From an uncultured Verrucomicrobiae bacterium (lineage in GTDB: Bacteria; Verrucomicrobiota; Verrucomicrobiia; Chthoniobacterales; Chthoniobacteraceae): a stretch of DNA of 64,000 bases. The notes below the pieces were generated by a model. That model saw only the letters and a list, made by a program, of their open reading frames with translations. It did no database searches and was not told the origin of the DNA. Shown piece after piece: positions 1,688 through 63,505 of this stretch (position 1 is its first letter; every line of letters starts with the position of its first letter). A program made the position numbers and the translations under genes. Location of the stretch: positions 352,001-416,000 of the forward strand of contig CAWIKF010000002.1 of assembly GCA_963836755.1 (NCBI GenBank), read 5' to 3'.

Positions 1688-1698
1688 GCGGAGCGGTT

Positions 1699-5190: not shown

Positions 5191-5344
5191 GGTGCTACGG
5201 GATTAAATGAAATACGCATGGCAAAGCAACGGGGAATTTTTTTGACCGACGCGCGCGCGATCCGTTCAAAATCCGCGCGCGGCGCGGCGCGGAACAATGG
5301 CTTGTCTTTTGCGCGATGAAGCAGGATGCTCCGCGCAGTTCTTT

Positions 5345-5505
5345 GTCTGCTTAATGGCTCGGCGAGTGCCGGGCCAGCGGGGGATCCGAATTTTCGCACC
5401 GGCTTTTTTTAAAACGAAGCGCGGGGCGGATCGGGGCGAACGGTGCAAGGCGCATCGCGAGCATTTCATGGCTCGAGCCCGACAGCTAACCTCGTCAGCG
5501 CCACA
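5345..5505 (+). promoter_or_regulatory. c-di-AMP (ydaO/yuaA) riboswitch
   Basis: Diagnostic blocks in the right order: GCTTAAT - hairpin - AGCGGGGGATCC ... GGGGCGAA ... GCCCGACAGCTAACCTCGTCAGCG. These match the B. subtilis ydaO element as recalled (CGCTTAAT...AGCGGGGGACCC...GGGGTGAAT...CCGTCAGCTAACCTCGTAAGCG). Lies 5' of an APC transporter. Confidence 0.88.
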
Positions 5506-5617
5506 TGATGGGCAAGGGACTGTCGATGCGCACATTCGCGCGACTGCCCTCTTCTCTTGCCAGAGAAAGCAAGATTCGTCCGCGCCGGAAGGCCGGGGCG
5601 AGGCAGTTTAAAACCAA

Positions 5618-7447
5618 ATGATCGCAACCGATTCGAAGCGGCCGCGTAATGTCGATTGGACGCGCGCGGCTGCCATTTTATATGGCGACTGGGGCACGAG
5701 CAAAGCCTACGTCGTAGGGCTGGCGTTTGCCGTCGCGGGCTATTCGTCGTTCTGGCTCATCGCCGCGATGTGCGTGCTCACCGCGCTGGTCGGGGTGAAT
5801 TACACGGTGATCTGCCGCTGCTATCCCGACGGCGGCGGCGTTTACGCGAGCGTGCGCCATCGCTCGGAGGTGGTGTCGATCGTCGGCGCGTTTCTGTTGA
5901 TCGCCGATTACATCGTCACGGCCGCAATTTCATCGCTCTCGGCTTTCCAATATCTCGGCGTGCCGCATCCGGAACTTTTCGCGGCGGTCGCGATTGCGGT
6001 GATCGGCGCGGGAAATTATTTCGGGCCGAAACTCACGGGCGGCCTCGCGTTTCTCATCTCGTTGCCGACGGCGCTGGTCGTGGTGGTGCTCGGGCTTTTC
6101 TGTCTGCCGCATCTCGGCACGGCGATTCACAATCTCCAGCCGCTGCACGGCGGATTTTTTACAAACTGGAATGGCTTCGTCGGAATCGTGCTCGCGCTCT
6201 CGGGCGTCGAGGCGATTGCAAATTCGACGGGCGTGATGAAGCTCGATCCGGGCAGCACCGATGCGCATCCGGTTGTTAAACGAACCGCTAACAAAGCGAT
6301 TTTTTGGGTCGCGATCGAGGTTTGCGGTTTCACCGCGCTGCTCGGCCTCGCGATGCACGCGCTCGCCGGCCTGCAAATCGTCAATGGCGACGTGAACGCG
6401 CCGGGCGCCGCGGGCGTGCGCGATTACATGCTGCGCTACATGGCGCAGGTTTTCGTCGGCGGCTCGCTCGGCACAGTCGCCGGTCACATCGCGGCGTGGA
6501 CGGTCAGCATCGTCTTCGGATTCCTGCTCCTTTCCGCGGTGAATACGGCGATCGTCGATTTGATCGCGATCTCGTTTCTCATGGCGCGCGACGGGGAGTT
6601 GCCGCCGGTTTTTCAAAAGTTAAACAAATTCGGCGTGCCGAATCTCAGCATTTTCGCCGCGACGATCGTGCCCGTTTTTCTCGTCGTGCTCGTCAAGGAC
6701 ATGGCCGGCCTCGCCGATCTTTACGCGGTCGGCGTCGTCGGCGCGATCGCGACAAATCTCGGCGCGAGCTCGACCGACAAGCATCTCGCGCTGAAAAAAT
6801 GGGAGCGCGGTTTGATGTTCGTGACGTTCGCGATCATGGCCGCGATCGAAGTTTCGCTCTTCGCCGACAAACCGAATGCGCGACTTTTTTCACTCTGCAT
6901 CCTCGCCGTCGGATTGATCGCGCGCGGCCTCGTCACCGAGCGCCGCATGAAGCGCGAGAAGACCGAGGCCGCCATCGCCGCGACGGAAAAAGCGCGCGAG
7001 ATCGCGCGGCGCACCGTGCAATTTGGCACGACGCACGTCGCGGCCGGCCAGCCGCTGCTCGCCGCCGTGCGCGGCATCGGGCGCACGCTCGACTTTGCGA
7101 TCGAAGAAGCGCGCGAAACCGATCGACCGCTCTATTTGCTCTTCGTGCGCGAGCAGCCGATTACCACTGCCGAGGACCGCAAACGCAAATGGATGGACGA
7201 TGAAGAGGCGTATGAAATTTTCGCCTACGCGGCCGAGAAGGCCGATGGACACACCGTTCTGCCGTGCTACGCCGTCAGCCAATCCGCCGCCGACACCATC
7301 GTGGACATCGCCGCGACGGTCGGCGCATCGCGGCTCATCGTCGGCGCGCCACAGCGGAGCGCGCTCGTGAATTTGCTGCGCGGAAACATGATGCGCCAGA
7401 TCGCGGACCTTTTGCCGGACGACATCCACATGCTCGTTTACGCGTAA
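5618..7447 (+). CDS. APC-superfamily permease with C-terminal USP-like domain; probable KimA/KUP-like K+ transporter
   Basis: TM1 LYGDWGTSKAY (cf. KUP YGDIGTSPLY), YPDGGGVY, LIADYIVT, LSGVEAIAN, about 12 TMs, soluble C-terminal alpha/beta domain. Preceded by a c-di-AMP riboswitch. Confidence 0.8.
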   Translation: MIATDSKRPRNVDWTRAAAILYGDWGTSKAYVVGLAFAVAGYSSFWLIAAMCVLTALVGVNYTVICRCYPDGGGVYASVRHRSEVVSIVGAFLLIADYIVTAAISSLSAFQYLGVPHPELFAAVAIAVIGAGNYFGPKLTGGLAFLISLPTALVVVVLGLFCLPHLGTAIHNLQPLHGGFFTNWNGFVGIVLALSGVEAIANSTGVMKLDPGSTDAHPVVKRTANKAIFWVAIEVCGFTALLGLAMHALAGLQIVNGDVNAPGAAGVRDYMLRYMAQVFVGGSLGTVAGHIAAWTVSIVFGFLLLSAVNTAIVDLIAISFLMARDGELPPVFQKLNKFGVPNLSIFAATIVPVFLVVLVKDMAGLADLYAVGVVGAIATNLGASSTDKHLALKKWERGLMFVTFAIMAAIEVSLFADKPNARLFSLCILAVGLIARGLVTERRMKREKTEAAIAATEKAREIARRTVQFGTTHVAAGQPLLAAVRGIGRTLDFAIEEARETDRPLYLLFVREQPITTAEDRKRKWMDDEEAYEIFAYAAEKADGHTVLPCYAVSQSAADTIVDIAATVGASRLIVGAPQRSALVNLLRGNMMRQIADLLPDDIHMLVYA

Positions 7448-16400: not shown

Positions 16401-16525
16401 GGTTTTACAAGCATCGCCCGCGATCGCGCAACAATTTCGGCTCGGCGGTGCACGATCCCTATTTGACCTATCTCCGATAGCAATTAAGAAAAGCACGAAA
16501 GCGCACTTGCGCAGCGGAGTAGAAA

Positions 16526-16569
16526 GCCAGTATGGCGAAATTGGCAGACGCGCCAGACTTAGGATTGGT
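16526..16569 (+). tRNA. 5' half only of tRNA-Leu (anticodon TAG); likely island attachment site
   Basis: GCCAGTA-TG-GCG-AAATTGGCAGA-CGC-G-CCAGA-CTTAGGA gives the acceptor 5' strand, Leu D-arm and anticodon loop. No variable arm, T-arm or TACTGGC acceptor 3' strand follows. Confidence 0.8.
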
Positions 16570-16684
16570 TTTTTGCCGCTTTCAAGACGTTGCTTCAAAT
16601 GCCATCGAATCAAGCACCAGACAGGGTTTCAGGTCGATTCTCGCTCCAAACGCGGTTGTCAAAAGACCCCTCAGAAAACGGCGC

Positions 16685-25338: not shown

Positions 25339-25699
25339 CGAAACTCATGAGATGCCGACATGGCAAGACAGTTAAAGGGCTATCATTAGGGGGATGCATA
25401 AAATCCGTGTTTCTTTGTCGGAGTCATCACAATGGCTCCGTGCTTGGACCCTTGGAGGTGCGCATTGTCCCGTCGTTATGGACGCGATCTAAGCGCCAGC
25501 ATAAGGATTCCGGATTAGTGACTTTCCTTTTCGAGCGCGGTATGGCAAAATTTGTCTTCAAATTTCCTGCACATGAAGCAAGCCCAGCTAAAAAAAAATC
25601 CGCCCGCGATGAACGTGGTTGATCAGACACATAAGTTTCTGGTGGCGATCGCAACATCGCTTTCTCTTTCAGTCCTCGTCCACGCGGCGGCAGCACCGG
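25339..25699 (+). repeat. About 360-bp upstream region + signal-peptide module, copy 1
   Basis: Aligns with 35676-36037 (about 40 differences by hand count). Includes an identical block catggcaagacagttaaagggctatcattagggggatgcata. Confidence 0.93.
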
Positions 25700-34962: not shown

Positions 34963-35085
34963 GAACCCTTCTGTGTCTTGCGCCACGATCATATCGCTCT
35001 TTCCACCTCTGCCGCTCACAATGCCGTCAATTGCGGCTGCGCAATGTTGAGGCCGACGCGCCCCCAGCCACTTTGCCATTGCATT
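34963..35085 (+). repeat. 123-bp copy of the 3' end of the TPR gene at 61423..62805
   Basis: Matches 62642-62764 with 4 mismatches (gaacccttctgtgtcttgcgccacga...ttgccattgcatt). Confidence 0.92.
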
Positions 35086-35300: not shown

Positions 35301-35676
35301 TCACACCTTCATTACCTGTCGCAGCCGTTCCGCGGCTGTTGGTGCATAGTGGGAGCGGTTGTTGTTGAAGACAACATGGACTTGTTGCACCTGCTGACTT
35401 AGAGACTCCACCCGTTCCGCAACTTCATCTAACTCCCTTTCTGAATAATCATAATCAAAACGATCTGCCACGGTCTTTCCAGTAGTGTAAGCATGTTCGT
35501 CCCTGCCATGCAGACGAAGGTAGGCCAGTGACGGCGAGGTGATCACATCAAATGTCGGGATGATGGTGAAGTGTTCGCCTTTGGGCGCATCAACCATGAC
35601 AAGCGGAACTTTTCGCTCTTGAAACCAAGCGACCGTCGTATCGCGTTGTTCGCCAGTCATCCACTCTCGGTTGCGC
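35301..35676 (-). pseudogene. DUF72 protein, C-terminal fragment
   Basis: RNREW...LVMVDAP...AYLRLHGR...RFDYDYS..EL...VVFNNN...AP..A. Breaks exactly at the left edge of repeat copy 2. Confidence 0.85.
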
Positions 35677-36037
35677 GAAAATCATGAGACGCCGGCATGG
35701 CAAGACAGTTAAAGGGCTATCATTAGGGGGATGCATACAATCCATGTTTCTTTTGCCGAAGTCATCCCAATGGCTCCGCGCTTGGACGCTTGAGGGTGCG
35801 CATCCTACCCGTCGTAATGGACGGGAACTTAGCGCAAGCATAAGGATTCTCGATTAGTAACTATCCTATCTGAGCGCGGTATGCCAAAGTTAGTCTTCAA
35901 ATTTCCTGCACATGAAGCAAGCCCAGCTGAAAAAATACCGGCCGCGATGAACGTGGTTGGTCAGACACATAAGTTCTTGGTGGCGATCGCCACATCGCTT
36001 TCTCTTTCAGTCCTCGCCCACGCGGCGCCCACACCGG
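35676..36037 (+). repeat. About 360-bp upstream region + signal-peptide module, copy 2
   Basis: Aligns with 25339-25699; encodes MNVVGQTHKFLVAIATSLSLSVLAHAA. Confidence 0.93.
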
Positions 36038-38962: not shown

Positions 38963-39610
38963 TGTCATGTTTCAAGAGGTTGTCCGCACGGGGAAGGTCT
39001 GGCAGGCTGGTGGTGGATGAAAACTCAACCCTTAATCATTCCGCACGGACAACATGCACGCTAATGCCACTCTCACTCTTTAAGTCGAGCACAAATGGTG
39101 CGCGAGATCCTCACCTTGGGTTTGACTTTGCGGGCGGCGGCCGCCGCACGCAAGGTCAGTGAAAAGACGGTCCGCAAATGGCTGCGCCGCGCCAAAGACG
39201 AAGGCTTTAAGCCGCGTCTGGAGGACCGTTCCTCCCGCCCAAAACATCAGCCGCGCAAGACTCCCGCGCAGCTCGAGGAACAGATTCTCGCCTTTCGCCG
39301 CCAGCGCCGTTCCTACGCCCAGATCCTCATGGTTCTCCCTGTTTCAAAAGCCACGCTCTCCCGCGTGCTGCGCCGCCATCATCTCAACCGCCTCTCCTGC
39401 CTGGAACCTCCAAAACCTCCCGCTGTCCGCTACGAACGCGCAGCTCCCGGCGAGCTCCTTCACCTCGACATCAAGAAGCTGGGCCGCTTCGCAAAGCCAG
39501 GCGTTCGCGCCACCGGCGACCGTTCCCATCGCAACCCGGGCTCCGGCGTGGAGAGCCTGCACGTCGCCATCGATGATCACAGCCGCCTCGCTTTCGCCTG
39601 TCTGCTCCCT
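38963..39610 (+). mobile_element. IS481-family element, 3'-truncated
   Basis: Left end TGTCATGTTTCAAGAGGTTG; MHANATLT start, HTH (VSEKTVRKWLRR, LEDRSSRP), RYER..PGELLHLDIKKLG, HVAIDDHSRLAF. Rest of the DDE domain and the right IR are absent. Confidence 0.9.
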
Positions 39611-39643
39611 AAACGCGTATGGCAGCGTTCATAATCCCCTTGT

Positions 39644-48018: not shown

Positions 48019-48510
48019 TTAAAGCTCCGCCTTAAGAGTGTCCCACAACGGCTCCAGGTCCTCATCCTCCAAGGCCCGCATGCGAAAGCGAGGATCAATA
48101 GCGAACGCTGTCTTTAGATAATCCTTGGCCGCTTGCATGTTTCCAAATTGGCACTCGTAACATGCCGGGTTGTAGTGAACCACTGCCACCTTCATGTGGT
48201 GTGTAGTAGCTCGCAGAGGTATCTTTCGAGCAGCTTCGATGGATTCAACACGACGTGTCGCATAGGCCCAGTGAATCCAATGCCAGTAATCCTCTGGGTG
48301 ATATTCCGCCAGCTTTTTAGCCACTGTTTGCATCAGCTCCCAGTGCTGCGTTTGCATATACAATCCAACCTTTACCGCCAATACCTCTGGAAGCTGGCGA
48401 GAGAATGGATCGATCGATTCCAACTCGTTATTGGCTTCCAAATACATCCCCAATTCGATGTATCCTTCGGCCGCGGTTAAGTGACGCAGTTCTTCAGCTT
48501 CAAGGGGCAT
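48019..48510 (-). CDS. Small TPR protein
   Basis: HLTAAEGYIELGM..EAN.ELE, HYN.ACY.CQ.G....AK.YL..A, ALEDEDLEPLW. Confidence 0.8.
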   Translation of the reverse strand: MPLEAEELRHLTAAEGYIELGMYLEANNELESIDPFSRQLPEVLAVKVGLYMQTQHWELMQTVAKKLAEYHPEDYWHWIHWAYATRRVESIEAARKIPLRATTHHMKVAVVHYNPACYECQFGNMQAAKDYLKTAFAIDPRFRMRALEDEDLEPLWDTLKAEL

Positions 48511-48889: not shown

Positions 48890-49009
48890 GGTTCAGAAGT
48901 GAATTGTAAAATCCCCCATGTGTCCACGGGAGAAACAGCAGCCCATCGTTGACCCGCCACAACGTTCGATGGAAGGTAGCTTTCCTGCGCCTTCCCAATG
49001 ATTTCAAAA

Positions 49010-49567
49010 ATGAAGCTCCCCCTCTTCTTCGCCCTTGCCCTGTCATTCGCTCGTCTCTCACAAGCGCAGACCCAGTTCGACCAGGCTTTCCACCAAACAA
49101 CCGCTGCGCTAAACATTCAGGTTTATTTCTCCCCGCAGGGAGGATGCACAGAGGCGATCGTGCGCGAGCTAAACGCGGCGAAGAAGACGGTGCTGGTTCA
49201 AGCATACTCCTTCACCAGTGACGAGATTGCCAAGGCTCTGGTAGATGCCCACAAGCGAGGGGTCGATGTGAAGGTGATCCTGGACAAAAAGGACAACACA
49301 ACAGGCAAATATTCGGCTGCGGCGGATTTTGTCGCTCATGCCAAAATCCCGACCTGGCTTGACGGCAAGCATGCCATTGCTCATAACAAGATCATGATCA
49401 TTGATGGGGAGACGCTGATCACTGGCTCGTTTAATTTCACCAAGGCGGCGGAGCATAGTAACGCTGAAAACCTGCTCATCATGAAAAACGTGCCGGACTT
49501 GATTGCGAAGTACACAGCAAATTGGAACAAGCACCTGTCGCATTCAGAATCTTATGCGGGAAGGTGA
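49010..49567 (+). CDS. Phospholipase D-family (Nuc-like) endonuclease with signal peptide
   Basis: VYFSPQGGCT, QAYSFTS, A.KRGV.V.VILD, single HKD motif HNKIMIID...TGSFNFT..AE..NAEN. Confidence 0.93.
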   Translation: MKLPLFFALALSFARLSQAQTQFDQAFHQTTAALNIQVYFSPQGGCTEAIVRELNAAKKTVLVQAYSFTSDEIAKALVDAHKRGVDVKVILDKKDNTTGKYSAAADFVAHAKIPTWLDGKHAIAHNKIMIIDGETLITGSFNFTKAAEHSNAENLLIMKNVPDLIAKYTANWNKHLSHSESYAGR

Positions 49568-50035
49568 AGCCCGCCGCAGGGCCGAAGCAGTGGACCTCGC
49601 GAGCGCAAACTGCTCCAGAATTGTCGCAAGCCGACGACTGCCACAAAAGCCGCGCCCTACTGGAAATCTTTTTCCGGACGATCGATCCGTCATTGAATTC
49701 AATTTCGGGAAAGCCGCGAATTTTAAAAAATGTCGGCGAACCCGCTTAGATTCAAAAAAGTGTGTCTGGCATCCGCCATTCAACCATGTCAGCCGCAAGC
49801 ACCTTCCGCTCGATCTCGCGAAGTTTGATTTCTTCTAACGGACGGCAAGCGCACGGTTGTGGGGCTAAAAAAGACTGGAGACAAGCCACTCACAATCAAG
49901 CCGCTTTCGTAAAAAGCATTCTATTCAAAGGTGTGTGAGCGTGTGGATATTCGTTTTGCGGCGAGCGAATAGGAGGAAAATTGTGATCTGGCCATAACCG
50001 AGAAATAACAACATGATCGATCGATTTAGATTTTC

Positions 50036-53000
50036 ATGCCTCTCTTTTATGAATCTGCGTTTCGCGCCGCTTGCCGTGATCGGCCACCGGCCGAGATCAA
50101 CCGGCTGTGCCCAGACCATTTCCTGCGCTGGGATCGCCTATTTCAGGCGCTCTCGTGGCTGAGCGACGAGCAACGGTGCGATGCAATCTACGGCGATTGG
50201 CTGTGCCAGCTCGATGCGCCGGGCGGCGAAAACCAACTGCTCACGCGTAATCATCTCCTGACCGGCGGCGCGCTCGATGCCCACTTTCTGGCGGAGCTGG
50301 CGCAGAACGCGAACGACGCGGCCGACGGCAAACCGGCGGCCTTTCGCGCCAAGCTCGAAGGCGATTGGCTGCTCGTCGCGAACGACGGGCGGCGGATCAA
50401 CGAGCGCAATCTTTTCGGGCTTTCGCGCTTCTTCGTCCACCTCGGCAGCGAAACCCTTCACGCGCTAACGCAAAAAGAGATCGGCCGCTTCGGAATCGGC
50501 TTCAAGTCGTGCTACCGCATCGCGCGTGAAGTATTCATCGAGAGTTGGGATGCCGCGGGAGGCTTTGCGTTCCGACTGCCGATCGCGCGGGACGGCGATC
50601 TGGAGTCGCATGCGGAAGAGGGGCGACTGCGGCGCGTCGTCGCCGGCCTAAAGAAGGGGGGATGCAGCGTGGAGACTTCCAACGCGGAGCCACAGCGTTT
50701 CGGTTATTGCACGCCGGAGTTTCTCTCACGTCTGCCTGCGCCCGCCCGCGCTTTGGCGCAAAAGTTCGACCGCTCCGAGCGCGGCACGGTCTTTTGTCTT
50801 CACCTCAACAAAGACGGCGCCGCGGAAGTGCGAGAAATCTTCGAGCGAGAGGATGCGGCCGTGGATGAATTGACGCCACTTTTCACGCCCCATCTCCGGC
50901 GTGTGGAGATCGGTGAGGTGGTGCTGGCGCGCACGCAGGCCAGGTCGCAAGCCGATGACGCGGCGGGTAAGATTGAGGCCGTGAAGCTGACGTTGGCGCG
51001 AGAATCAGCGGGCGCTGCCACTAATCAGCGTATGTGGCGGCTGCGAGGGACGGGCGCGGACGACTGGTGGCAGATCGCTCTGGCTGCGGACTCTAAGTTT
51101 CAACTCACGCGCGCCGATGCGGAGGCCGTGGCTGGTTCTGGTCGGGAAGGCGGTGCCTTTGCCTTTTTCCGGCTGGGCGATGTGAAGTGGCCGCTGCGCT
51201 TTCATCTGCACATTGCGCTGCCGACCAATCTAAGTCGCGGTGATTGGACCGACGCCAAAGCCCTCGACGCGGAGATCGCTCGCGCGATGAATGAATTGGC
51301 CGAGTGGCTGGAAAGTCACACGGACCGCTGGCATCCGGGCTGGTCGCCGGCCGACCTGATCGAGCGAGAGCCGGAGGCGGATGAAGGGAGAGCGATCCAA
51401 GCCGTGGCATGCCTTCGCACCGCCGTGCGCTCGCGGAAACTGGTGCGCTCACTGGCGGGCGGATTTGTCACGGGAGCCGCCGCCCGGGGACTCGAGATTG
51501 TAGATCGCGAGGACGTTCGCGACGCATGGCGCCGGCTCGGCGCGCATCCGTGCATGGCGGAACTCGCGCCGCGGCTGGCCTTCGCGAATCCCGTCCTCGG
51601 TATCAAAGCCACGCGCGAAACCGCGCAGGATTGCCTGCGTATCCTCGCTGAAATTGCGGGCGAATCGGCCATCGAACATCCCGACCATGTGCAGGACGCG
51701 ATAGTTGCCGCTCTGTCCATCGAGCCCCCCTCGGCGTCCGCGATCGAGCGGGTCTTAGGGAAGGTGCAACTGCCGCGCGCGGAAGGTCGCACGATTGCCT
51801 TGAGCGAGTTGGCGAGCGCGCGCCGAAGCGCGCATCTCGCGCCTGGCTGGCATCCCTTTTTTGCAGAGCTGCTCAAATGGAACGATCGGCGCCCGGTCGT
51901 CGGCGGCACGGTCTTCGGCACGGCGCTCAGCGGGGCGCTCGATTTCGCGGAGCCGGCGTTCTACGTCGATTGGCACGAGCTGCCGGATTTTCTCTCCACC
52001 GAAGAGTCGTGGAAGCAGCGCGGTGAAGAATTCTGGAAAGATCAGCGCGCGGAATGTCCGCCACGGCACGCCGCGCGCGTCGTCACGGCCCTGCGGCTGC
52101 GGGATGCAGGCGGCCGCTGGCGCGCCATCACCGATTTCTGGCTACACGACGCCCGCGTCCCCGCGTGTTTGGATGACGTATTGAGCACTCACGCGGAAGG
52201 CGCGCGTGTTACGGCCAAGCTGCGCCGCTGGGCCTTGCTCGACGCATACGATCGGGCGGTGGCGCAACATGTCGTCAGTGATCTTCCGACAAAGCTCGCC
52301 GCACTGTTCACCAAATCCGCCGACGCCGATCCGCTCGCGATGCTCGAGGAGGGGCGTTCCGCCAACTCGCGCGCGGCACTTTCGCCCGAATGGCAAAAAG
52401 CGGTCGCCGATGCAGAGCGCGCGGCGGTCGTTTCGTTCCGCGCGACCCATCCGATTTCAGCGACCGGAAAGCAGCTTATCTCCACATTTTTGCCGGTGCC
52501 GCTGCGGTCGCTCCTGCTGAAATGCGAGGAGTTTCAACTCGCTCCCGCGTGGATGACACCATTGGCCGCGAGGGCCGTGGCGCGGCTAAATCCGAATCAG
52601 CCTCTCCCGAGGGTCGTCTTCCCCGAGACGCTGCAGAATGTGGCCAGTCGCAGCGAACTTGCCGAAGCGCTGCTTGCGCAAGCCCATCGATGGGCGGCTC
52701 AAGAACTGGCCGCGCTCGAAATCGCGGCGCTCGATGAGCTATGCCGCGACTGCAACGGGAACACGCGCATCACGCTCGCTCGCGGCAATCCCGACTTCCT
52801 GCGCAACATTCTCGCCATCCCCGCGGACGCTGCCCCGGCGCATTGCGGTGGTGGAAAATGGCAGTGGCACGGACGCCGCCATCTGCCGGCGAGCCTCGCG
52901 CGCGCACCGCGTCTCGTCGCTGCCTGCCTCACGATCGCTGACGCGAAACGGTTGATCGAAAAGCGCGGTGAAAGCATGCCGCTGGCCGAGGACGACGTCG

Positions 53001-55605
53001 CGCCGGAGTTGCGCGCGAACCTGAAGTTCATCGCTGCGCTCGCAGCCACCGGCGGTCCGGCGAATCTCCGCTACGGCGCAGAACTCAAGCTCGTCTGGCA
53101 CCGCGGCGATGAGCCGCTGTGCGAATTGCGCGATCTCGATTTCGCACGCGACGGCGACCATCTCCTCGTCAGCCGCGTCCTCGCACCGCCGGATGTGAGC
53201 GGTTACGCGGATGTGCTCGCCACCTATCTGCGCTTCCACCGCGACCTGCGGTCGTGCGGGCGAGGGAGCAGCGGCAGGGCGCCTTCACGATCTACGAGGA
53301 GCATCGCGACAAAATCCTGCGCGTCTTTCGCCAGCAACTCCTGGAGCGAGTCGGTTATCGCGTCGAGCACGTGCTGCGCGAGCTGCTGCAAAACGCGGAA
53401 AGCGCCTACGCAAGCCAGCGCGAGCCGAAGCCGGCGCAGCGCCCGTTTCTCGTCACCGTCGCTCCAGGCGCTTCCGAAAACATGCGGCGGGTCGAGGTCG
53501 CTCATGACGGGCGCGCGTTCAACGCGATGGACAAGGACGGTCGCGAACGCGACGACACTCACCGCATCGTGAGCCTCGGAGGTGATCGGCAACAAGCGGT
53601 CGAGGAACTGGGACGCTTCAATCGCGGTTTCAAATTCGTTTTCAACGTCACGCGGCGGGTGCAGGTGCGCAGCGGCGCCTATGATTTTTCGATTGTCGAT
53701 CTGCTAATCCTCGCGCCGCCGAATCCGATGCCGCGCGACGGGGCGTTTTCGGCGCGGACGACGTTCGCGTGGGAATGTGCGCTCGCACAGGCCGAAGAGC
53801 TCCTGAGATGGAATGGCAATCGGCCGGTGATCGCGCGCGTTGGCGCGTTTTCTCAGCGGCGCTCGTCTTCTTGCGCGAAGTCACGCAGGTCGTCATCCGC
53901 TACCGCGAGAAAACGTGGAACTGGGCGATCGACCGAAAGGTGGAAGCCGATGGCTGGACACGCGTGCGCGTGGTGAGCGTCGAGGCTGGTGAACAGACGT
54001 TTCGCGTGCTGGCTGCGACTTCGCAACAGCGCTGGGCTGGCGGCGCGCGCCGGCTGGCCGTCGGCTTTGAACTCGATGCGCATGGCCGGCCAAACGCCCC
54101 GCTGCCGCTCCGCTCTATTTGTTTTTCCGAACGGAAACGACAGGGCTGTGCGGGCTGTGGTTCAATGGCGATTTCGACGTGGCCGAAGATCGGCTCGCGG
54201 TGCGTGACAACAGCAAGAACGCGGCACTGATCAAGGAAGCTCTGGCCCTCGCTATCGCGGAAGCGCAGCGGCAGATCGCGGCGCAGCCCGAGGCCGCGAT
54301 GTGGCTGGCGTGGGCGCGCGTGCTCGCGCCGCAGGATGGCCGAGAATGGGTGCGCGCGCGCCTGCACGAGGACACGGCAAATTTGCGTGCCGGCTTCGAC
54401 GCGGCGGCGGCGATGCTGACGGCGGCCATCCCGCACGAGGGACGGCTACGGCGCGCGGAGCAACTGCGGCAGCCGACGAATTTCCTGCGGCGAGTGGCCG
54501 GGAGATTTGCCGCGGCGTGGGAAATCGACGGCTCGGATTGGATCGAACCGGAGATCGGCGCGGAGCTCGACCGATTCGCGGAGCGCTCCGGAAAATTTTG
54601 GCTCGACGACCACATCAAAGAGCACGGTGCGCGGCACGACTTGCTGCGCCGCATCCGCATACGCTCCTCCGCCGGTTTTCCGCAGCGAATTTGTCCGCTC
54701 GGCGATTGAGCAGCAGGAGCACGATCGAGCGCTCAACGCGATCGCCCGCTTTCTTCCCCGCGACCTTGAGCCGGAGCCTGAACCGGCATCGCTTGAACTC
54801 GCCGACCTCCTCGAGTGGTGGGAAGACAAGCGCGATCTCGCGCCTTACACCCTCGATGGGGACTGGTGGCCACTGCTTTTCCCCGGCGCGGAGACGCCAG
54901 ACCGCGCGACCTTCTTCGCGACGTGCTGACTCGGACCGGCGACGACGATGGCCGGCTCGCCTGGTATCAAGTGCTCAGCGTGCCGTGTCTGCTCGCAATT
55001 CCGCGGCCGGTGCAGCGGACGCGCCCGTTCTGGCAGCAAGAGTTGGGGGCGCGAGAATTCTGGAGGCGCACGGCGGCGGAAGGGTTCGGCGCATGGACCG
55101 ATCAGCTCTTCGCGGAGCTGATCGCGCGGCCTTTCGATGATCCCCGGGCCAGCGGCGAAGACGCCGAATCGGGCGGCGCGTCTTTGATGACGTGCGAAAT
55201 CTGCACGCTGGTTTTCGAAAACGATTTCGCGGGCGCGTTGGTCGACGCGGCGGTGCGCGGCATCGGGCTCGCCGATTTTCTGCACAACGGCAACCGCCCT
55301 GATCTGATGCGGTTGACCGTGTCGGTCAAAGCGCCATTGCGCCCGACTTCTTCTGCGGGAAATGCCCGGCTGGGAATTTCCTCGCGGGCGACATGCATCC
55401 ACCTTCGCTCTTCGTATGCCGGCCGGTGCGCCTCGCCGCGGCAGATTATGGCCTGATCACGCCCGAGCAGGCGGAGCGTTACGACTTCGCCGCGCTCCAG
55501 GAAACCGACGAGCAGATCCGCGCTGCGCTCGCCCGTGACCCTGCGGGACGCGAGCTCCTGCGCGATTACGACATCCCCCTGCTGCACTGGAGGCTGACGC
55601 ATTGA
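50036..55605 (+). CDS. Giant (~1800-1850 aa if repaired) protein with two sacsin/GHKL-type ATPase domains; several frameshifts after 53.2 kb
   Basis: Domain 1: FLAELAQNANDA...LLVANDG...IGRFGIGFKSCY...VFIES. Domain 2: VLRELLQNAESA...VAHDG..F...LGRFNRGFKFVF...VQVRSG. Coding sense continues through ORFs 53119, 54119, 54507, 54815 and 55393 to TGA 55605. Confidence 0.75.
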
Positions 55606-58347
55606 GCCTGCCCGTTGCCGGTCAACGTGTGATCCTTCGCCCGCGGCCGGAACTTGGCTTCGGGCGTGTTCGTTTGATTGAGGAGGACGCTTTCGGCGAG
55701 ACCCGGTGCCAGGTCGAGTTCGAGCATCGAGACGGGTATCTCGCAGTGCCACCGGCGGAGCTCGAGATCGTGCCGTGGCCGTGGGAGGAGTTCGCGGCGG
55801 GAGCACTCGGCGTCATCGAAGTTTTCCGCCGCAAGCTACTAGCGGGCGTGGTAGTGGGAGAAAATAATCGCACGGGCGCATTCCTGCGTGCGGCCACTCA
55901 GCCGCTACCGCACCAGGCCTTCCTGCTCGACAAGCTGCTCTCGGGAAATCGCTTCGGGCATGTGCTCGCGGATGACGTGGGCCTCGGCAAGACGGTTGAA
56001 GCCGGGCTGATTATCATGAGTCTTTTGCAGCAGGAGGCGGAGGCGCGCGTCCTCGTGGTTTAGTCCGGCCGGTCTGACGCTGCAATGGCAGGATGAAATG
56101 GACGAACATTTCCAGCTCGTGTTTGCCATCCTGGGCCGCGACTTCAATCCTAGCACCGCCGCGGGCTGGCGCGGTCGGCAGCTCATTATTGCACCCCTCG
56201 ATACGGCCAAGCGCGAGGATCACGCGGCCACCCTTCATGCCGTCGGCCCATTCCACCTCGTCATTTGCGACGAGGCGCACCGGCTTTCCGCGCGACGCGA
56301 ATTCCTCTCCGGGGAGTTGCGGACGACCGCGAACTATCGGCTCTTTCGCGAACTCGTCGAAGACGGACGATCGACTACGTCACGGGCGGCGACGGCGCAA
56401 CCCGCTCGCCGCGGCTGCTCCTGCTCTCCGCGACACCGCACCAGGGCGACGACTTGCGCATCGGCTATTTGCGAAGCTCGTGCGCCCGGATCTCTGCACA
56501 CACGACGACGACGAAGTGACAGCGGATTTCACGTCCGAGAACCTGCGCGAGGCGATCACGCGCACCGCGAAGTCGCGCGCGACGGATTGGCAGGGGCGAC
56601 CGCTTTTCAAAGGCCACGTCGCGGAGACGCACGAGGTGGATTGGACGGAGGAAGAGCGCGAGGTAGCGCGGGAGCTCACGCGTTACATCCAACAGAGCCT
56701 GCTCGTCGCGGAGAATGCGGGAGCCGCGCGCCACTCATCATCGAACTGGTGATGCACACATTTCACAAGATCGCCGCGTCGAGCTGGCACGCGCTCGAGG
56801 AGGCACTCGATCGGCGGCAGGCCGCGCTCCTCGGGGCGGTCGTCGCGCCCTTGGGCGACGACGATCCCGAGACCGATGAAGACGAAACGACGCGCGGCCT
56901 GGCGCAGCCGGAATGGTTTGCGGGCGAACAGCAAATGATCGGCGCGCTGCTTGAGCGCGTGCGCGATCTCGAAAACGACAGCAAATGGGACGCATGCGCG
57001 GACCTGTTGCGCGCGATCGAGGCCGCTGAGCCATGTGCGAAGGTGCTTTTTTTCACGCAATACCGGGCAACACAAAGCGCCCTGATCGAGCGCCTCGCAG
57101 AGATCTTCCCCGATGCGGGCGTGACCGAGATCCATGGCGGCCTCTCGCTTGATGAGCGGCGTGAGGCGCGGCGAAGCTTCGAAGGCCCGGCGCGATTTCT
57201 CGTCTCGACCGAGGCGGGCGGCGAGGGCGTGAACCTGCACCGGGCTTGTCACGTCGATGATCAATTATGATCTACCGTGGAATCCGATGCGGCTGCAGCA
57301 GCGCATCGGCCGTCTCGATCGGTATGGCCAGCAGGCATTAGTGCAGGTGTTCAATCTCCGCGTGCCCGATTCGTGGGACGCGCGCATTTCCATCCGCATC
57401 CACGAGCGGCTCGCCGTTGTGCAAGCGACCATGGGGCCAATCGCCGGCGGGCTGGAGGACTACCACGAGATGATCCTCGGGAACGTCGCCAGCCATGTCG
57501 ATGCGCCGCGCATTTTCGCCGAGTGGCGTCGCGATCCGCGCGCCGCTGTGTCCGACGCGCAGATTGATGATTGGGTGAGGGAAGCGGTCGCATCGGCTCG
57601 CCGATGGGAGCAGCTTTTCAGCCGCGATCTCGGTCTCGGCGCACTGCCGGCGCAGGCGCAGGTGGAAGGCGCGGTCTTCCGCGCCGCTTACGACGCGTGC
57701 CTCGGCGCGCATGGCCTGCGGCTCTCCGACACGCGCACCTCGGCGCAGCAGATCATTCCTGGCGTTTTTCATTTTCCGCTGCCGGCGGAAGTTTCGCGGG
57801 CGGGAATTGCGCGCCTCGCGTGAAGTTTACGTCGTCTTCGACAAGGAGCGATTCGCGGAAGTCCGTGGCGAGGTGCTTGGCCGCGCCCGCGGGCAGGAAA
57901 TCAAACCGGGACTGGCGGGCTTTGGTGAGCCGGTCACCGATTGGCTTTTCCAAAGTGCCTTCGTGCCGCGCCGCGGCGAGAGCGCGTTTGCCATTCGCGC
58001 TGGGGAGGGAATGGACGCACGGCCAAGGCTGGCTCTTTGTCGCGACGCTGCGCTGGCTTGGAGCGGCTCGGCGTCTTCGCGCGCCTGACAGCCTCGCTGC
58101 TTGTTTCATCGCGGACGCGGGCGAACCGCGGCTGCTTTCCGCTACGGAGCTCGCGTCCTTGGCCAAAGGCGCGACGCCATCTTCCGCGGGGGCGGCGTCG
58201 AATGACGCGCCGCACGATGTTGCCCGCCCACTGGTGCAATCGCACCTGCGCGCTCTCGCCGAGCAGCGTGGTGCGCACGCCCGCGCGAACGCCGGTTGGA
58301 ACTGGACGCTATTCGCTCGCGTCGGCGTTGGCGGAGGCTCGACGTAA
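55602..58347 (+). CDS. SNF2/RapA-like SF2 helicase, frameshifted
   Basis: PLPHQ, LADDVGLGKTVEAG, DEAHRL, LLLSATPHQG, KVLFFTQYRATQ, LVSTEAGGEGVNL, INYDLPWNPMRLQQRIGRLDRYGQ. Start overlaps the upstream stop (TTGA). Confidence 0.88.
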
Positions 58348-58380
58348 GGCTTCGCGAAACCATCTTCACGCACAAACTCT

Positions 58381-61362
58381 ATGAAAACCACACTCCCCTT
58401 CCGCCATCTCTCGATCCGCGTCCCGTGGCACGATGCGGGTTGGGACGGGACGGTGTGCCAGAGGCCGCTGAGTAACAACGCGTGCCTGTGTTTGAAAGGC
58501 ATCAGCGAAAGCCGCGACGATCCGTGGGAGGCGGCGCATGCGGGCGAGGCGATGGCCGACTTGCCGGACAAAGTGCCGCCCTGCCTGCGCGAGCGGGCGG
58601 GCTTCATGTCGGGCCGGCCGGTCACGCTCTCGCTCACACACAAGCTCGGGCACGACGAGGACTACGAGCACATCCAACCGACGCCGCTCGAGATGCCGGC
58701 GTGGTCCGCGCCCGGCGTGCCTTTCAACTGGCTGAACCGCGCTGGCGCCGCCGCGCGCGAGGAGCGGCTGGCGATCGGCTACGATACCGGCCGCGAGCCG
58801 ATGGACCGCTGGAAAGCCACGGGCACGTGGGTTCTGCATCCGGAGAATCAGCGCGCGTGCCTCGAGTCGTTTTGGAGCGCGATCGTGCCGGGGCGCTCGC
58901 TCGTCTTTTTCTACGCAAAGGCGATTCCCGGCGTGGAGGACAACCGCCGCGTGCTCGTCGGCGTGGCACGGGTGAGCGAGCTGAAGCCGCTGCGCGAATA
59001 CATCAAGGGCGACCCCGCGGGCGTCGGTGCGTGGATGTGGGAGCGGCCGGTGCTCCACACGTTGCGCACCGATTTTCGCGACGGATTTTTGCTGCCGTAT
59101 CAGGCCCTGCTCGCGGCGATCGACGTCGGGCAGCCGCTGCATCTGCCGGAATTCGTGGCCTTCGCGCCGGAGGAGCATCGGATGGAATTCAGCTACGCCA
59201 CGGAGCACGTCACCGGCGACGCGGCGCTCGGCGCGCTGGAGGAAATGCGGCGCGCGCTAATGCGGTGCTCAGAGGTGGTGCCCGGGCCTTGGGAACGCGT
59301 GCAGGCGTGGATCAACGACCGAATCATCGAGGTGCGCCGGCAGCGCGGAGCCTGCCCGGGGCTCGGGGCGGCGCTCACCGCCTTCGGGCTGCCGCTCGGC
59401 GAGATCGTGGCCGCGGCGCTCACCGCGGAGCTGCGTGACGACGAAGATCCGTGGGCGCGCGTGGAGGCCGCCTTCGCCGACCCGAAGAAACTCCCGGCGC
59501 CGCTGCGCTCGCAGATCACCGTGTCCTTGAAAGGAAAGTGGAAGGTGCTGACGAAGCCGCGGCGCGCGTGGCTACGCCTGCTCTCTCGCCTGGCGCTCAC
59601 CGCGGATCAGGCGGGCATGCTGTGGGACGAGGCGGAGCGCATTTTCACGCCGATCCGCGCCCGCGAGAGCGAGCTGCTCGCTAACCCGTATCTTATCTGC
59701 GAGCAGTGGTCGCAGCCGGCGGTCAAGGAGGAGGTGTTGGAGGATGAGGAGGGCAAGGAAACCGAAAGCATCACGGTCGTTCCGGCGCCGGGATTTTGGA
59801 CGGTGGATCGCGCGGTCTATCTGCCGGCGGCGCTGGCGGCGCATCATCCGCTGCCTGGGCCGGAACCGGCTTGGGAGCGGGACGATGCGCGCCGCGTGCG
59901 CGCCTTGCTCGGGCACGTTCTGCGCGCGGGCGAGCGCGAAGGCCATGCGGCCCTGCCCTTGCCGCTGCTTGTGGAGCGAGCCGCCGCCCTCGGGCTCGAG
60001 CCGCCGCTCGGCGTCGATGCGGGGCTCATCGCGGCGCTGCGGGAGACGTGGGACGCGGCCGCGGAAGAGGACGATGCGCCCGAGGCGGAGCTCGTTTTTC
60101 ACCAGCTCGCCGAGGGCGAAATCATGGTCCAGACCCGCGCGCGCGAGGAGGTCACGCGCATGATTCGCGGCCTGACGCGGCGCGTCCGGAAAATGAAGCG
60201 GCTCACGGTTGCGTCCAATTGGCCCGCGCGGCTGCGGGACAACCTGCCGCCCGACGATGGCACGGCGCGCGAACGCAAAGCGCGCGAGGAAAAAGCCGCG
60301 GCTCTCGCAGAGCTCGCGGCGTCGCCGTTCGCAGTGCTCGTCGGACCAGCCGGGACAGGAAAGCCACGCATTCTGCGGACGCTGATCAATGAACCGTCGG
60401 TGCAGCAGGGCGGCGTGCTGCTGCTCGCGCCGACGGGCAAGGCGCGCGTGCGCTTGCAAACGCCGACGGCGTATCCGGCGAAAACGGTCGCGCAATTCCT
60501 AATGCGGCTGCATCGCTACAATACGGCGACGGCCGCTTATTTCATGAACCCGGACGAGAAGGGCGCGACTCAGCTCAAGACGGTGATCGTGGATGAGGCG
60601 TCGATGCTCACCGAGGACCAGCTCGCAGCGCTGCTCGATGCGGTGCGCGCAGCCGAGCGGGTCGTGCTCGTCGGCGATCCGGGGCAACTACCGCCCATCG
60701 GCGCGGGGAAGCCGTTCGTCGATCTCGTGGAAGCGCTACGGCCGGCCGAGGCCTGCTGGCCGCGGGTTGCGCAGGGTTATGCGGAGCTCACGCAGCGCAT
60801 GCGGCAGGATCAGCGCGACGAGCGCGTGCCGCTCGACGTGCAACTGGCTCCGCCTCAGCCACTGCGCAACGGTTTACGACGGTCAATTTGGACGAACCGG
60901 AGTAGCGCGGCGCCCGCATCCGGTCAAAGTGAAAGACGCCGCCAGCGGACGCGAAGGTTGGTATGAGCAATACCTGATTCATCGGACGCGCGCTGGGACA
61001 CTCGTCAGCTCAAAAGCGGAGGTGGTGGTAGCCAACGAGCTTGATTACGCCCGCGAGAAACGGTGGCTGACCTATGGATACGAAGAGCGCCTCCCGCGGC
61101 CGACGGATCTAGCCGCCTTCCGGACTTCACCATTCGTGACGAGATAGGCCGCACCTTTTACTGGGAGCACTGCGGCATGCCTGACGATCCCGGGTACGCG
61201 GAACGTTGGCAGGAAAAGCTCGCCTGGTATGCCCGGCAGGGTATCGAGCAATGGCATGAGACCGAACGGCCTGACGGACAGTTGATCGTGACGCAGGATG
61301 CCGGAGGCCGATTGGACGCTTCGCGAGTGAAGGAGATTATTCGGACAATTTTTTCCGGATAG
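58381..61362 (+). CDS. RecD2-like SF1 ATPase/helicase with long N-terminal domain and C-terminal nuclease-like domain; frameshifted and apparently internally deleted
   Basis: N-terminal RHLSIRVPWHD.GWDG.VC; GPAGTGK, LLAPTGKA, VIVDEASM, VLVGDPGQLPPIGAG; C-terminal LIHRT..G..V.SK.EV..AN | PDFTI......FYWEHCGM..DP.Y..RW..KLAWY. Confidence 0.8.
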
Positions 61363-61422
61363 GGTGGGTGGCCTAAGTGAAATGCGGTTGACGCTCCCAA
61401 GACTTGTTTGTGGGTTTTGGGA

Positions 61423-62805
61423 ATGGAGTTCGAATCTGTGCTGAAAACGGCAAATGGCCTACTCGATCTCGGATTGTTCGAGGAAGCAGCGAAGGAGTTG
61501 ACGAGGGTGCCTGAAGAAGAGAAAGCACGGCCGGCTTTTCTCCGGGCGTTGCTGCGCGTTCAGCTCGCGCTTGGACACTCTAAAGCTGCAGCCGAGACCG
61601 CAGCGCAACTCCGCTGCAGGGACAAATACTTGCTATATGGAGCACTCGATATCTCCATAGCACTGAGTTTTGCCGGAAGGCTTATAGAGGCACGGTCGGT
61701 AATGGAGGCATTTGCACAATTCAAGATGGGTTATCCTTCGGAGGCTTATCATATGGCCTGTCTGGAATCGCGTCTCGGAAAATTTGAAGCTGCGACGCGC
61801 TGGCTTCATCTGACTTTGCAGCAATCCGAGGTTTACTGCACCAAAGCGCCCTTCGACTCCGATCTTATTCCACTGTGGAAATCTGTCAGGAGTGAGCCGC
61901 TTACATTGGAACAAGCACACCTGCTGCTCGATCCCTGCTTTGACGTTCTACTCGGGAAGAGTGCTGGCGATCTAGCACAGAAAAGTCAAATCGACTCCAA
62001 CGATTTGCGGGCTTTTCCGGAGAGTTGGAAGCGACTCTTTCGGTTCGACCCGACGAAGGGACTTTTTACAATTCATGCTTTGACGGCGACTCAGTTCCCC
62101 TTTCAACGAGATGCTTGTCTCGCTTGGTTTCGCAAGCGCGCGGAAATTTTCCTTCGCAATCTGCAAATTGGCCGCGAACGGGCGTTGACTGTCGTGTTGG
62201 CAGCACAATGCGAATATGCACTCAAGTATTTGCAAATCGGCAACTATTTCGCCGCGCGATGTCATCTGTTATGGGCTCTGGCCAAGAAGCCGGAGTTTCT
62301 CTCAGAATACCGCTGCCACAAGGATTTGCACGCAATGCGCTTTCTCCTCGACGAAATTCATTGGGCCAATGGCATTGATCCGCAATGGAGTCATTTTCTC
62401 GTTCGAGCATGTTTTCCTAGCGCAGAGATGAATGTGCCGGAGCTTCTTGAGGATGTGCCGGTCGCGCTACGAAACACTTCCCTATACTTGTTGCAAATCG
62501 GTTCTGTCGCTCAGGAGAACGGAGATTATGTCCCAGCCGTTCAAAGCTGGATAAAGCTGTCCGCGAATTGGGCGAAAGATATCGTGGGATATGCAAATGG
62601 TGTGACCTGTTTGCTGCACATGCGGATGTGGGACCGGGCTAGAACCCTTCTGTGTCTTGCGCCACGAGCATATCGATCTTTCCACCTCTGCCGCTCACAA
62701 TGCCGTCAATTGCGGCTGCGCAATATTGAGGCCGACGCGCCCCCAGCTACTTTGCCATTGCATTGGCAACCCGAAGTGGGACGAATCGCGAAGGGGTATT
62801 CCTGA
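61423..62805 (+). CDS. TPR-repeat protein; N-terminal domain paralogous to 48019..48510
   Basis: LKTANGLLDLGLFEEAAKEL, AYHMACLESRLG..EAA..WL, KAPFDSDLIPLW. Confidence 0.7.
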   Translation: MEFESVLKTANGLLDLGLFEEAAKELTRVPEEEKARPAFLRALLRVQLALGHSKAAAETAAQLRCRDKYLLYGALDISIALSFAGRLIEARSVMEAFAQFKMGYPSEAYHMACLESRLGKFEAATRWLHLTLQQSEVYCTKAPFDSDLIPLWKSVRSEPLTLEQAHLLLDPCFDVLLGKSAGDLAQKSQIDSNDLRAFPESWKRLFRFDPTKGLFTIHALTATQFPFQRDACLAWFRKRAEIFLRNLQIGRERALTVVLAAQCEYALKYLQIGNYFAARCHLLWALAKKPEFLSEYRCHKDLHAMRFLLDEIHWANGIDPQWSHFLVRACFPSAEMNVPELLEDVPVALRNTSLYLLQIGSVAQENGDYVPAVQSWIKLSANWAKDIVGYANGVTCLLHMRMWDRARTLLCLAPRAYRSFHLCRSQCRQLRLRNIEADAPPATLPLHWQPEVGRIAKGYS

Positions 62806-62857: not shown

Positions 62858-63439
62858 TCATCTCCCCGCGCGAATGAGCGCGAGCAGTTCGCCGAGCAAA
62901 TTGTCGGCATTAACCGGCACTTCTCCCGCTTTCAGTTCACCCGCGAGTTTAGCGTCGAGCTCGATCGCTTTCAGTTTGTCGGGCATTTTAATAGTAATGG
63001 TTTCGAAGCCGTTCTCGCCGTCTCTCTTCGCTGCCCACACCTGGCAAAGTCGGCTATTTTGATCTACTTCTCCAATCGGAGTGGTCACCACCGAGCGCAA
63101 GTAGGCGCGCTTCTCTTGTAGCGTTAGCCTCGTAGAGGCATTTTCCGATTCCCTGAGCGCCTCGAGTTGCTTTTTGACGTTAACATTAGTCAACAAACGC
63201 GACCCCGCGGATTTCGCCGTCGTTCGATCCGGACATTGATAAGCTTCCGCATAGGCCTCGGTAGCGGTTTTGCCCAGCACATAAAGTCGACAAAAAACGC
63301 TTTGACGACCGTTCAGTGAAGGGGTTCTGTCCGCATCGCATTCGGCCGCTTTTTTAATTGAACGCAGAAGCCTACGTCCCGGTGGCTTACCGATTTTCTC
63401 GGAAGGTGACGGGTCGTGATCATGATCGTTTACTTCCAT
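62858..63439 (-). CDS. Phage terminase small subunit-like protein
   Basis: LNGRQ..FCRLYV.GK.ATEAY..AY......A...GSRLL.N..V HTH; C-terminal IKMPDKLKAIEL.AKL.G. Confidence 0.75.
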   Translation of the reverse strand: MEVNDHDHDPSPSEKIGKPPGRRLLRSIKKAAECDADRTPSLNGRQSVFCRLYVLGKTATEAYAEAYQCPDRTTAKSAGSRLLTNVNVKKQLEALRESENASTRLTLQEKRAYLRSVVTTPIGEVDQNSRLCQVWAAKRDGENGFETITIKMPDKLKAIELDAKLAGELKAGEVPVNADNLLGELLALIRAGR

Positions 63440-63505
63440 GGACCCGATGGCTGCTATCGCCACAGCCGTAAAGGGCAATTCTTTTTTTTGACAAATGTTC
63501 GGCCC

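Follow-up and report, generated by a model that had tools for sequence, protein, structure and literature searches.

The locus

The window, as the whole stretch of 64,000 nucleotides analysed here is called, carries three co-oriented genes in one block (Table 1). This layout, first described in the initial annotation, is borne out by tblastn with intact homologues, which follows gene 1 over residues 1-1857 and gene 2 over residues 3-912. The tight coupling is equally real: genes 1 and 2 overlap in the TTGA at 55602-55605, and a gap of 33 bp (58348-58380) precedes gene 3. The block is as GC-rich as had been claimed (0.659 vs 0.497 and 0.526 in the flanks), and its GC content tops that of all 1,570 genome windows of equal size. 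As also claimed, no methyltransferase was matched when 21 fragments were compared with Pfam and PADLOC.

Table 1. Features of the block and of the left end of the element that carries it
Feature	Position in window	Strand	Remarks
Block of three genes	50036-61362	+	fully accounted for by the three genes (tblastn with intact homologues)
Gene 1, giant protein with two sacsin-type GHKL modules and an HhH-glycosylase-like C-terminus	50036-55605	+	about 1,860 codons
GHKL ATPase 1 and S5/transducer domain	50216-51355	+	lid (GxFGxGFK) and N-box residues Glu and Asn intact
Middle region, variable and largely helical	51356-53244	+	within gene 1
GHKL ATPase 2 and S5 domain	53300-54320	+	limits approximate; Glu and Asn retained
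Putative HhH-GPD (EndoIII/Ogg)-like C-terminal domain	54786-55602	+	heavily frame-broken; profile matches in three frames
Gene 2, RapA/BrxHII-type SNF2 ATPase	55602-58347	+	homologues 902-928 aa
Gene 3, PDC-S68 RecD-like SF1 helicase, C-terminal PD..WEH motif	58381-61362	+	internal deletion 60849-60906
Att-like copy, 5' part of tRNA-Leu(TAG)	16524-16570	+	left end of integrated element

The block is carried by an integrated element of roughly 51 kb, bounded by a partial and an intact tRNA-Leu; the tRNA-anchored island of the initial annotation is thereby confirmed. The att-like copy agrees with the tRNA at G000:C2:419631-419713 over 33 bp exactly and over 48 bp at 93.8%; the intact tRNA lies about 3.6 kb past the window's end, and the adjoining tyrosine recombinase (402 aa) about 2.4 kb past it. 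Within the window ARAGORN found no tRNA. The sole Rfam match is a c-di-AMP riboswitch.

The neighbourhood had been read as a defence island, and here the picture is mixed. The terS gene is confirmed at 62858-63478 (PF03592). The PLD gene is present and is NucT-like by its best NCBIfam match, but that match falls below the cut-off, and the gene is not kept beside homologues of the block; a near-identical partial copy occurs elsewhere in the same genome. The supposed hsdR remnant, which we take to resemble an HsdR C-terminus, went unconfirmed, with no match in Pfam, NCBIfam or PADLOC. The remaining ORFs of the island are mostly carbohydrate-enzyme- and transporter-like, as judged by eye. Homologues of the block do lie in defence islands, but the window's island is not itself a dense one.

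State of the window's copy

In the window all three ORFs are broken. Comparison by tblastn with intact homologues locates six frame changes in gene 1 (a minimum), seven in gene 2 and at least one in gene 3; the last domain of gene 1 has compensated indels in addition. The homologue P0002 tiles gene 1 in seven pieces (41% identity up to residue 1,092, 31-52% in later pieces), the L004 and L037 proteins tile gene 2 in eight, and the L022 protein tiles gene 3 with its residues 833-1143 absent.

Most of the frame breaks are probably assembly errors. Two proteins about 99% identical outside the frame-shifted stretches, P0009 and P0001, are continuous across 53244, and carry breaks of their own at other sites. 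Contigs from runs X1 and X2, of two studies, agree with some parts of the block at 91-98% identity and leave others without cover; they have one extra base at 53244, 53851 (both runs), 54091, 56472 and 61092, and at 60849-60906 the 58 letters of the window correspond to 918 in the X2 contig. Runs X3 and X6 yielded no long pieces of the block. A simple, unvalidated coding model, applied to the first 1.2 Mb of contig C2, finds 122 frame switches, with a peak of 10 in the block's 16-kb bin; the second-highest bin, with 8, holds unrelated genes at the window's start.

Other observations speak against assembly error: outside the block the island shows hardly any switches in the same scan, and a deletion of 860 bases is atypical of homopolymer error. 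Of 26 sites at which both runs differ from the window (drawn from 40 of 461 listed rows), 17 change an amino acid, which fits error and decay alike. Also against assembly error, the strain behind X2 has a 4,490-bp deletion of its own, and several homologous loci are truncated or interrupted (L002, L008, L019, L041 and L050). The biological reading that follows is drawn from intact homologues rather than from the window's broken copy.

Architecture of the proteins

The double GHKL assignment of gene 1 stands: two GHKL-S5 modules are found, of sacsin type by matches to PF25794 and NF047352 and by structure. The second is possibly degenerate, because its lid reads GxFNxGF. The best library matches, to TmtA (E about 1e-21), are confined to the ATPase regions. 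With E allowed up to 1, neither P0002 nor P0008 matches DUF3684, and a 2,436-aa form of the protein does not match it either. Pfam, PADLOC and NCBIfam found no nuclease in gene 1, the 620-residue middle region being barely covered structurally; for that region no fold was found at this slight coverage.

The last domain of gene 1 is quite likely to have an HhH fold: the model of a homologue (L023) is all-helical and matches HhH glycosylases. The domain has no Pfam match; hhalign against EndoIII and MutY gave nothing significant, and the PDB sequence search a best E of 0.17. The Foldseek lists, the VIA second look included, were filled by Hsp90-type matches, so that they say nothing for or against this fold. 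With moderate confidence, the model suggests an EndoIII/Ogg-like fold devoid of catalytic residues. The position of the catalytic Lys, after the hairpin, is Gln in 129/129 sequences, and that of the catalytic Asp (VDTH motif) is Cys, Asn, Ser or Ala in 128/128, both positions being placed by an ungapped motif, not by superposition. Other polar residues are invariant: Glu134 and Asp280 (each 128/128), and Asp145, Lys148 and Gln196-Ser197 (each 129/129). Mean identity is lowest in the N-terminal half of gene 1 (0.35) and reaches 0.43 in the last domain and 0.54 in gene 2; the best-conserved non-ATPase residues of gene 1 sit in the HhH-like domain.

The SNF2 ATPase motifs of gene 2 are invariant across 25 homologues, and its best PDB sequence match is RapA. 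Residues 24-677 align to BREX helicases; the last 240 residues do not. Against DrmD it scores 312 bits, under the equivalog cut-off of 610. Complex prediction for residues 1-750 of gene 2 with the last domain of gene 1 scored 0.00 twice, with controls not folded, which speaks neither for nor against binding.

The initial annotation recognized no named defence system here, and for genes 1 and 2 the libraries searched agree, with TmtA matching only the ATPases and gene 2 staying below the DrmD cut-off; gene 3, however, is a catalogued PADLOC candidate, PDC-S68. It scores 826.6 bits (E 9e-249) against PDLC05065, a match counted as full-length (model positions 3-793 and 1082-1219), and lacks the equivalent of homologue residues 833-1143, the second helicase domain (the UvrD_C_2-bearing part). 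Its Walker A motif reads GKP, with Pro at the Thr site; in 6/6 homologues it is GKT. As far as its sequence can tell, the window's gene 3 would not encode a complete SF1 helicase. The PD..WEH motif we take to be nuclease-like. The name PDC-S68 is absent from all full texts searched.

Conservation and neighbours

Gene 1 belongs to a family, with 74 matches among 1.84 billion representatives and 75 proteins of 1,800-2,000 aa among 149 examined. Two scans gave 61 loci, reduced to 49 by dropping 11 duplicates and one Tiamat-like locus. The 20 named genome records comprise 13 Verrucomicrobia, one Victivallales, three Planctomycetes and three others; intact loci (for example L037, L023, L018 and G115) come from bacteria of the PVC group, for which current libraries give poor coverage of defence systems. 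The module is rare and patchy: its last domain occurs in 2 of 401 genomes of the phylum, the window's own counted. Neither last-domain query had a match in the plasmid collection. Among viral contigs, three stretches code for a last-domain relative, with no locus recovered, and the gene 2 query met only distant SNF2 cores, at most 35% identical over the core.

Genes 1 and 2 almost certainly form a two-gene core. Among 26 non-redundant loci in which the end of gene 1 is present, 25 have gene 2 beginning no more than 92 bp after it; the exception, L044, has a YhcG gene and stops 747 bp on. The distant 2,436-aa form, in G115, retains both the last domain and an adjacent gene 2. Gene 2 was not found in three fragmentary genomes, where gene 1 is cut by the contig end. 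Divergence of the two genes is correlated (Spearman 0.9), which speaks for joint inheritance only. Across the 61 loci there is no constant third gene.

To read the context, 140 proteins, controls included, were run against PADLOC with an E threshold of 1e-25, among them most of the 183 listed neighbours of at least 240 aa, and 50 against Pfam. BREX genes flank eight loci; other loci have DRT1, CBASS, SIR2-HerA, IetAS, DruE, or type III and IIG methylases; Mrr, GmrSD and HNH, NERD or UvrD nucleases also lie near homologues. Known defence genes are found around homologues, and a defence role of the pair is very probable. Many neighbours have no match at all, and some loci have no defence gene.

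A candidate mechanism and its rivals

One way to understand the pair is as a two-component anti-phage module for modification-dependent (type IV-like) surveillance of DNA, an explanation to which we give an even chance. It draws on the fixed gene order, tight coupling and defence-island context, the two GHKL-S5 modules, the intact-motif SNF2 ATPase and the HhH-glycosylase-like fold without the canonical catalytic pair. That is, the two GHKL modules, of a single chain or of a head-to-tail dimer, might form an asymmetric clamp that shuts around duplex DNA; the complex would be carried along the DNA by the SNF2 motor; the inactive EndoIII-like domain would probe for non-canonical bases, such as those of hypermodified phage DNA; recognition would lock or remodel the complex and so block phage replication; alternatively, a nuclease that happens to be close by (here PDC-S68) might receive the DNA. 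A methyltransferase to mark self would not be needed, because the mark would sit on the invader. How the clamp is arranged, which base is sensed and how killing comes about are inferences; the modified-base sensor is proposed by analogy with END nucleases and Tiamat, and sensing of modified bases by the pair is about as easy to doubt as to believe. In its boldest form, possible but doubtful, a single-chain asymmetric clamp with a disarmed EndoIII-fold sensor and an SNF2 motor would restrict modified-DNA phages with no nuclease or methyltransferase of its own, as a MORC/SNF2-like reader and silencer of foreign DNA marks.

The same domain could instead be an active glycosylase with relocated catalytic residues, a Dag-like effector to which clamp and motor lend processivity and control. 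Invariant polar residues do persist in it, the absence of a nuclease would be explained, and the HhH glycosylases Dag1 and Dag2 protect against G-modified phages, according to the accessible part of their description (10.1101/2025.10.29.685425); yet the canonical positions are never Lys or Asp, and Dag1 is there said to work with a Lys-Asp pair, so that this reading is unlikely. Nor is it probable that the module is modification-independent, with a middle region that senses some DNA structure or phage protein, an HhH domain that only holds DNA, and a replication block or cell arrest as the outcome. The low conservation of gene 1's N-terminal half would suit it, as would the fast-evolving middle sensor proposed in the available portion of the Tiamat preprint (10.64898/2026.09.30.754977); however, without a methyltransferase it leaves no self/non-self discrimination on DNA, and it is the HhH-like domain that has the best-conserved residues outside the ATPases and that survives in the distant subfamily. 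The original proposal of a modification-independent system that destroys DNA by itself is probably wrong, because the conserved pair shows no nuclease and has a glycosylase-fold domain of the modified-base-sensing kind.

That proposal also made the three genes one system, which in its obligate form, with PDC-S68 as nuclease effector, is very improbable. PDC-S68 does lie upstream of gene 1 in 4 of the 30 loci with at least 4.5 kb of upstream sequence (abutting it in L022), vs at least 3 of the 400 genomes of the phylum, in each of which two candidates were scored, and the X2 match runs from 50034 to 61362, linking gene 1's start to gene 3's stop across a deletion in a close relative; this leaves the trio some support. 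But none of the 19 loci that continue for 1 kb or more after gene 2 has PDC-S68 there, all three of its loci in phylum genomes are without gene 1 or 2 in the surrounding DNA fetched (two of these genomes have no gene 1 match anywhere), and BREX, Mrr and GmrSD recur near the pair about as often. By these counts, gene 3 is a recurrent but optional neighbour. A mobile DNA-repair or chromatin-like module for damaged host bases, with no part in defence, would account for the folds, all of them repair folds (GHKL being MutL-like), and for L001, L009 and L017, where homologues lie amid non-defence genes; its rarity and patchiness, its repeated position beside or inside BREX and RM loci, the frequent truncation or interruption of loci and the host's own EndoIII and MutY make this most unlikely.

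Relation to known systems

Genes 1 and 2 are a real two-gene candidate defence module with an apparently undescribed combination of domains. If the modification-dependent reading is true, this would be a third use of the glycosylase fold against phages, as a sensor with an ATP-driven clamp and a motor, beside active glycosylases and sensor-nuclease fusions. Insertion of the pair into BREX loci has a counterpart in the complementary pairing of BREX and the modification-dependent BrxU, reported in the accessible text of 10.1101/2024.01.29.577857, where the PADLOC PDC set is also described. Gene 3 is a PDC-S68 member by score, a separate single-gene candidate broken in the window.

Gene 2 shares an N-terminal small domain and SNF2 core with BrxHII of BREX type 3, DrmD of DISARM, HmaA of Hma and RapA; it falls in the same RapA-type clade but below the family cut-offs, and the unit has no PglX, PglZ, BrxC, DrmA/B or methyltransferase. 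With Dag1 and Dag2 gene 1 shares the HhH-superfamily fold and the defence setting, but Dag1 keeps its catalytic Lys-Asp pair, and the words 'fusion', 'ATPase' and 'helicase' are absent from the accessible text (10.1101/2025.10.29.685425). The pair belongs to none of Dag, BREX, DISARM or Hma.

Eukaryotic sacsin likewise has tandem Hsp90-like ATPase modules in one chain, and its SR1 is the structural match of highest identity to gene 1 (20-22%); gene 1 is bacterial, with two modules rather than three and no J or HEPN domain. It is a compact bacterial system for testing tandem GHKL modules; if the reading is true, it would also be a tractable model of the reason for sacsin's repeated ATPase module.

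The literature searched, with subscription papers mostly outside it, holds no description of a double-GHKL/HhH-like protein with an SNF2 partner; the supplements of the Tiamat and PDC preprints could list the family. Tiamat and Tiamat-like GHL proteins, in the accessible part of 10.64898/2026.09.30.754977, have a sacsin-type GHKL ATPase and transducer, a helical middle, an interchangeable C-terminal domain and helicase neighbours, Swi/Snf included; gene 1 differs in its two ATPase modules, its nearly fixed SNF2 partner, the absence of a DUF3684 or C-terminal PD-(D/E)xK (NOV_C) match, and an HhH-glycosylase-like C-terminus not among the C-terminal types described there. END nucleases, in the available text of PMC12191111, are marked by protection against hypermodified phages and have a C-terminal inactive EndoIII/Ogg-like domain and no methyltransferase, with only PLD, a NucS-like nuclease and McrB GTPase given as fusions; in gene 1 the fusion is instead to two GHKL ATPases, with no nuclease found and a separate SNF2 gene. 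The pair connects these Tiamat/sacsin and END-nuclease themes: by analogy, it may work as a sensor of the END type coupled to an ATPase of the Tiamat type, yet is a member of neither.

Genomic setting of the block

The integrated element that carries the block is ~51 kb long, runs from window 16524-16570 to G000:C2:419713 on the source contig, and lies at the 5' side of tRNA-Leu(TAG). Judged by eye, carbohydrate-enzyme-like and transporter ORFs make up most of its content; two pairs of direct repeats lie within it, and a truncated transposase-like ORF presumably resembles IS481. Beside the block is a gene for a PLD nuclease that is NucT-like and has a hydrophobic N-terminus; a 420-bp part of this gene recurs (98.8%) at G000:C2:1299384-1299803. 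A TPR-like gene lies on each side of the block.

Outside the island, at the window start, a second cluster of predicted frame switches lies in genes that presumably resemble gliding-motility-type ABC transporter partners; further on, a c-di-AMP riboswitch stands upstream of the gene for a 609-aa membrane protein, presumably similar to a KimA-type potassium importer.

Features in the window and at loci carrying homologues
Feature	Location	Strand	Remark
Frame-switch cluster	136-2549	-	7 predicted switches
c-di-AMP riboswitch	5338-5515		RF00379, 57.2 bits
609-aa membrane protein	5618-7447
Direct repeat, 363 bp	25339-25699, 35676-36037		88%
Direct repeat, 123 bp	34963-35085, 62642-62764		96.7%
Transposase-like ORF	39095-39634		truncated
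TPR-like gene	48019-48510	-	NF047558, weak or passing match
PLD nuclease	48998-49567
TPR-like gene	61408-62805	+	NF047558, weak or passing match
~300-aa family	L019:9089-9991
~300-aa family	L037:9080-9991
~300-aa family	L052:697-1527
~300-aa family	L057:212-1003

Variation among homologous loci

At four loci, an uncharacterised family of ~300 aa is encoded directly upstream of gene 1. Searches of Pfam (E 0.001) and PADLOC (E 1e-25) gave no match to it; it is possibly an accessory gene, or a separate defence gene.

At L089:633-10687 (G115:C11, in a PVC-group genome), gene 1 occurs as a 2,436-aa subfamily with two canonical sacsin lids, followed by gene 2 and then UvrD-like, SF1, UvrD-like and HNH genes, with type III RM and vWA/DnaJ genes on the upstream side. 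At L008:2263-5691, part of gene 1 is fused in-frame to residues 273-914 of gene 2, a product of internal deletion or misassembly.

At L021:6231-13126, a Bacteroidales record holds a different, single-ATPase gene, which is like TmtA, the GHL protein of Tiamat, and lies immediately 3' of a DrmD-like SNF2 gene, with a DndH-like gene nearby.
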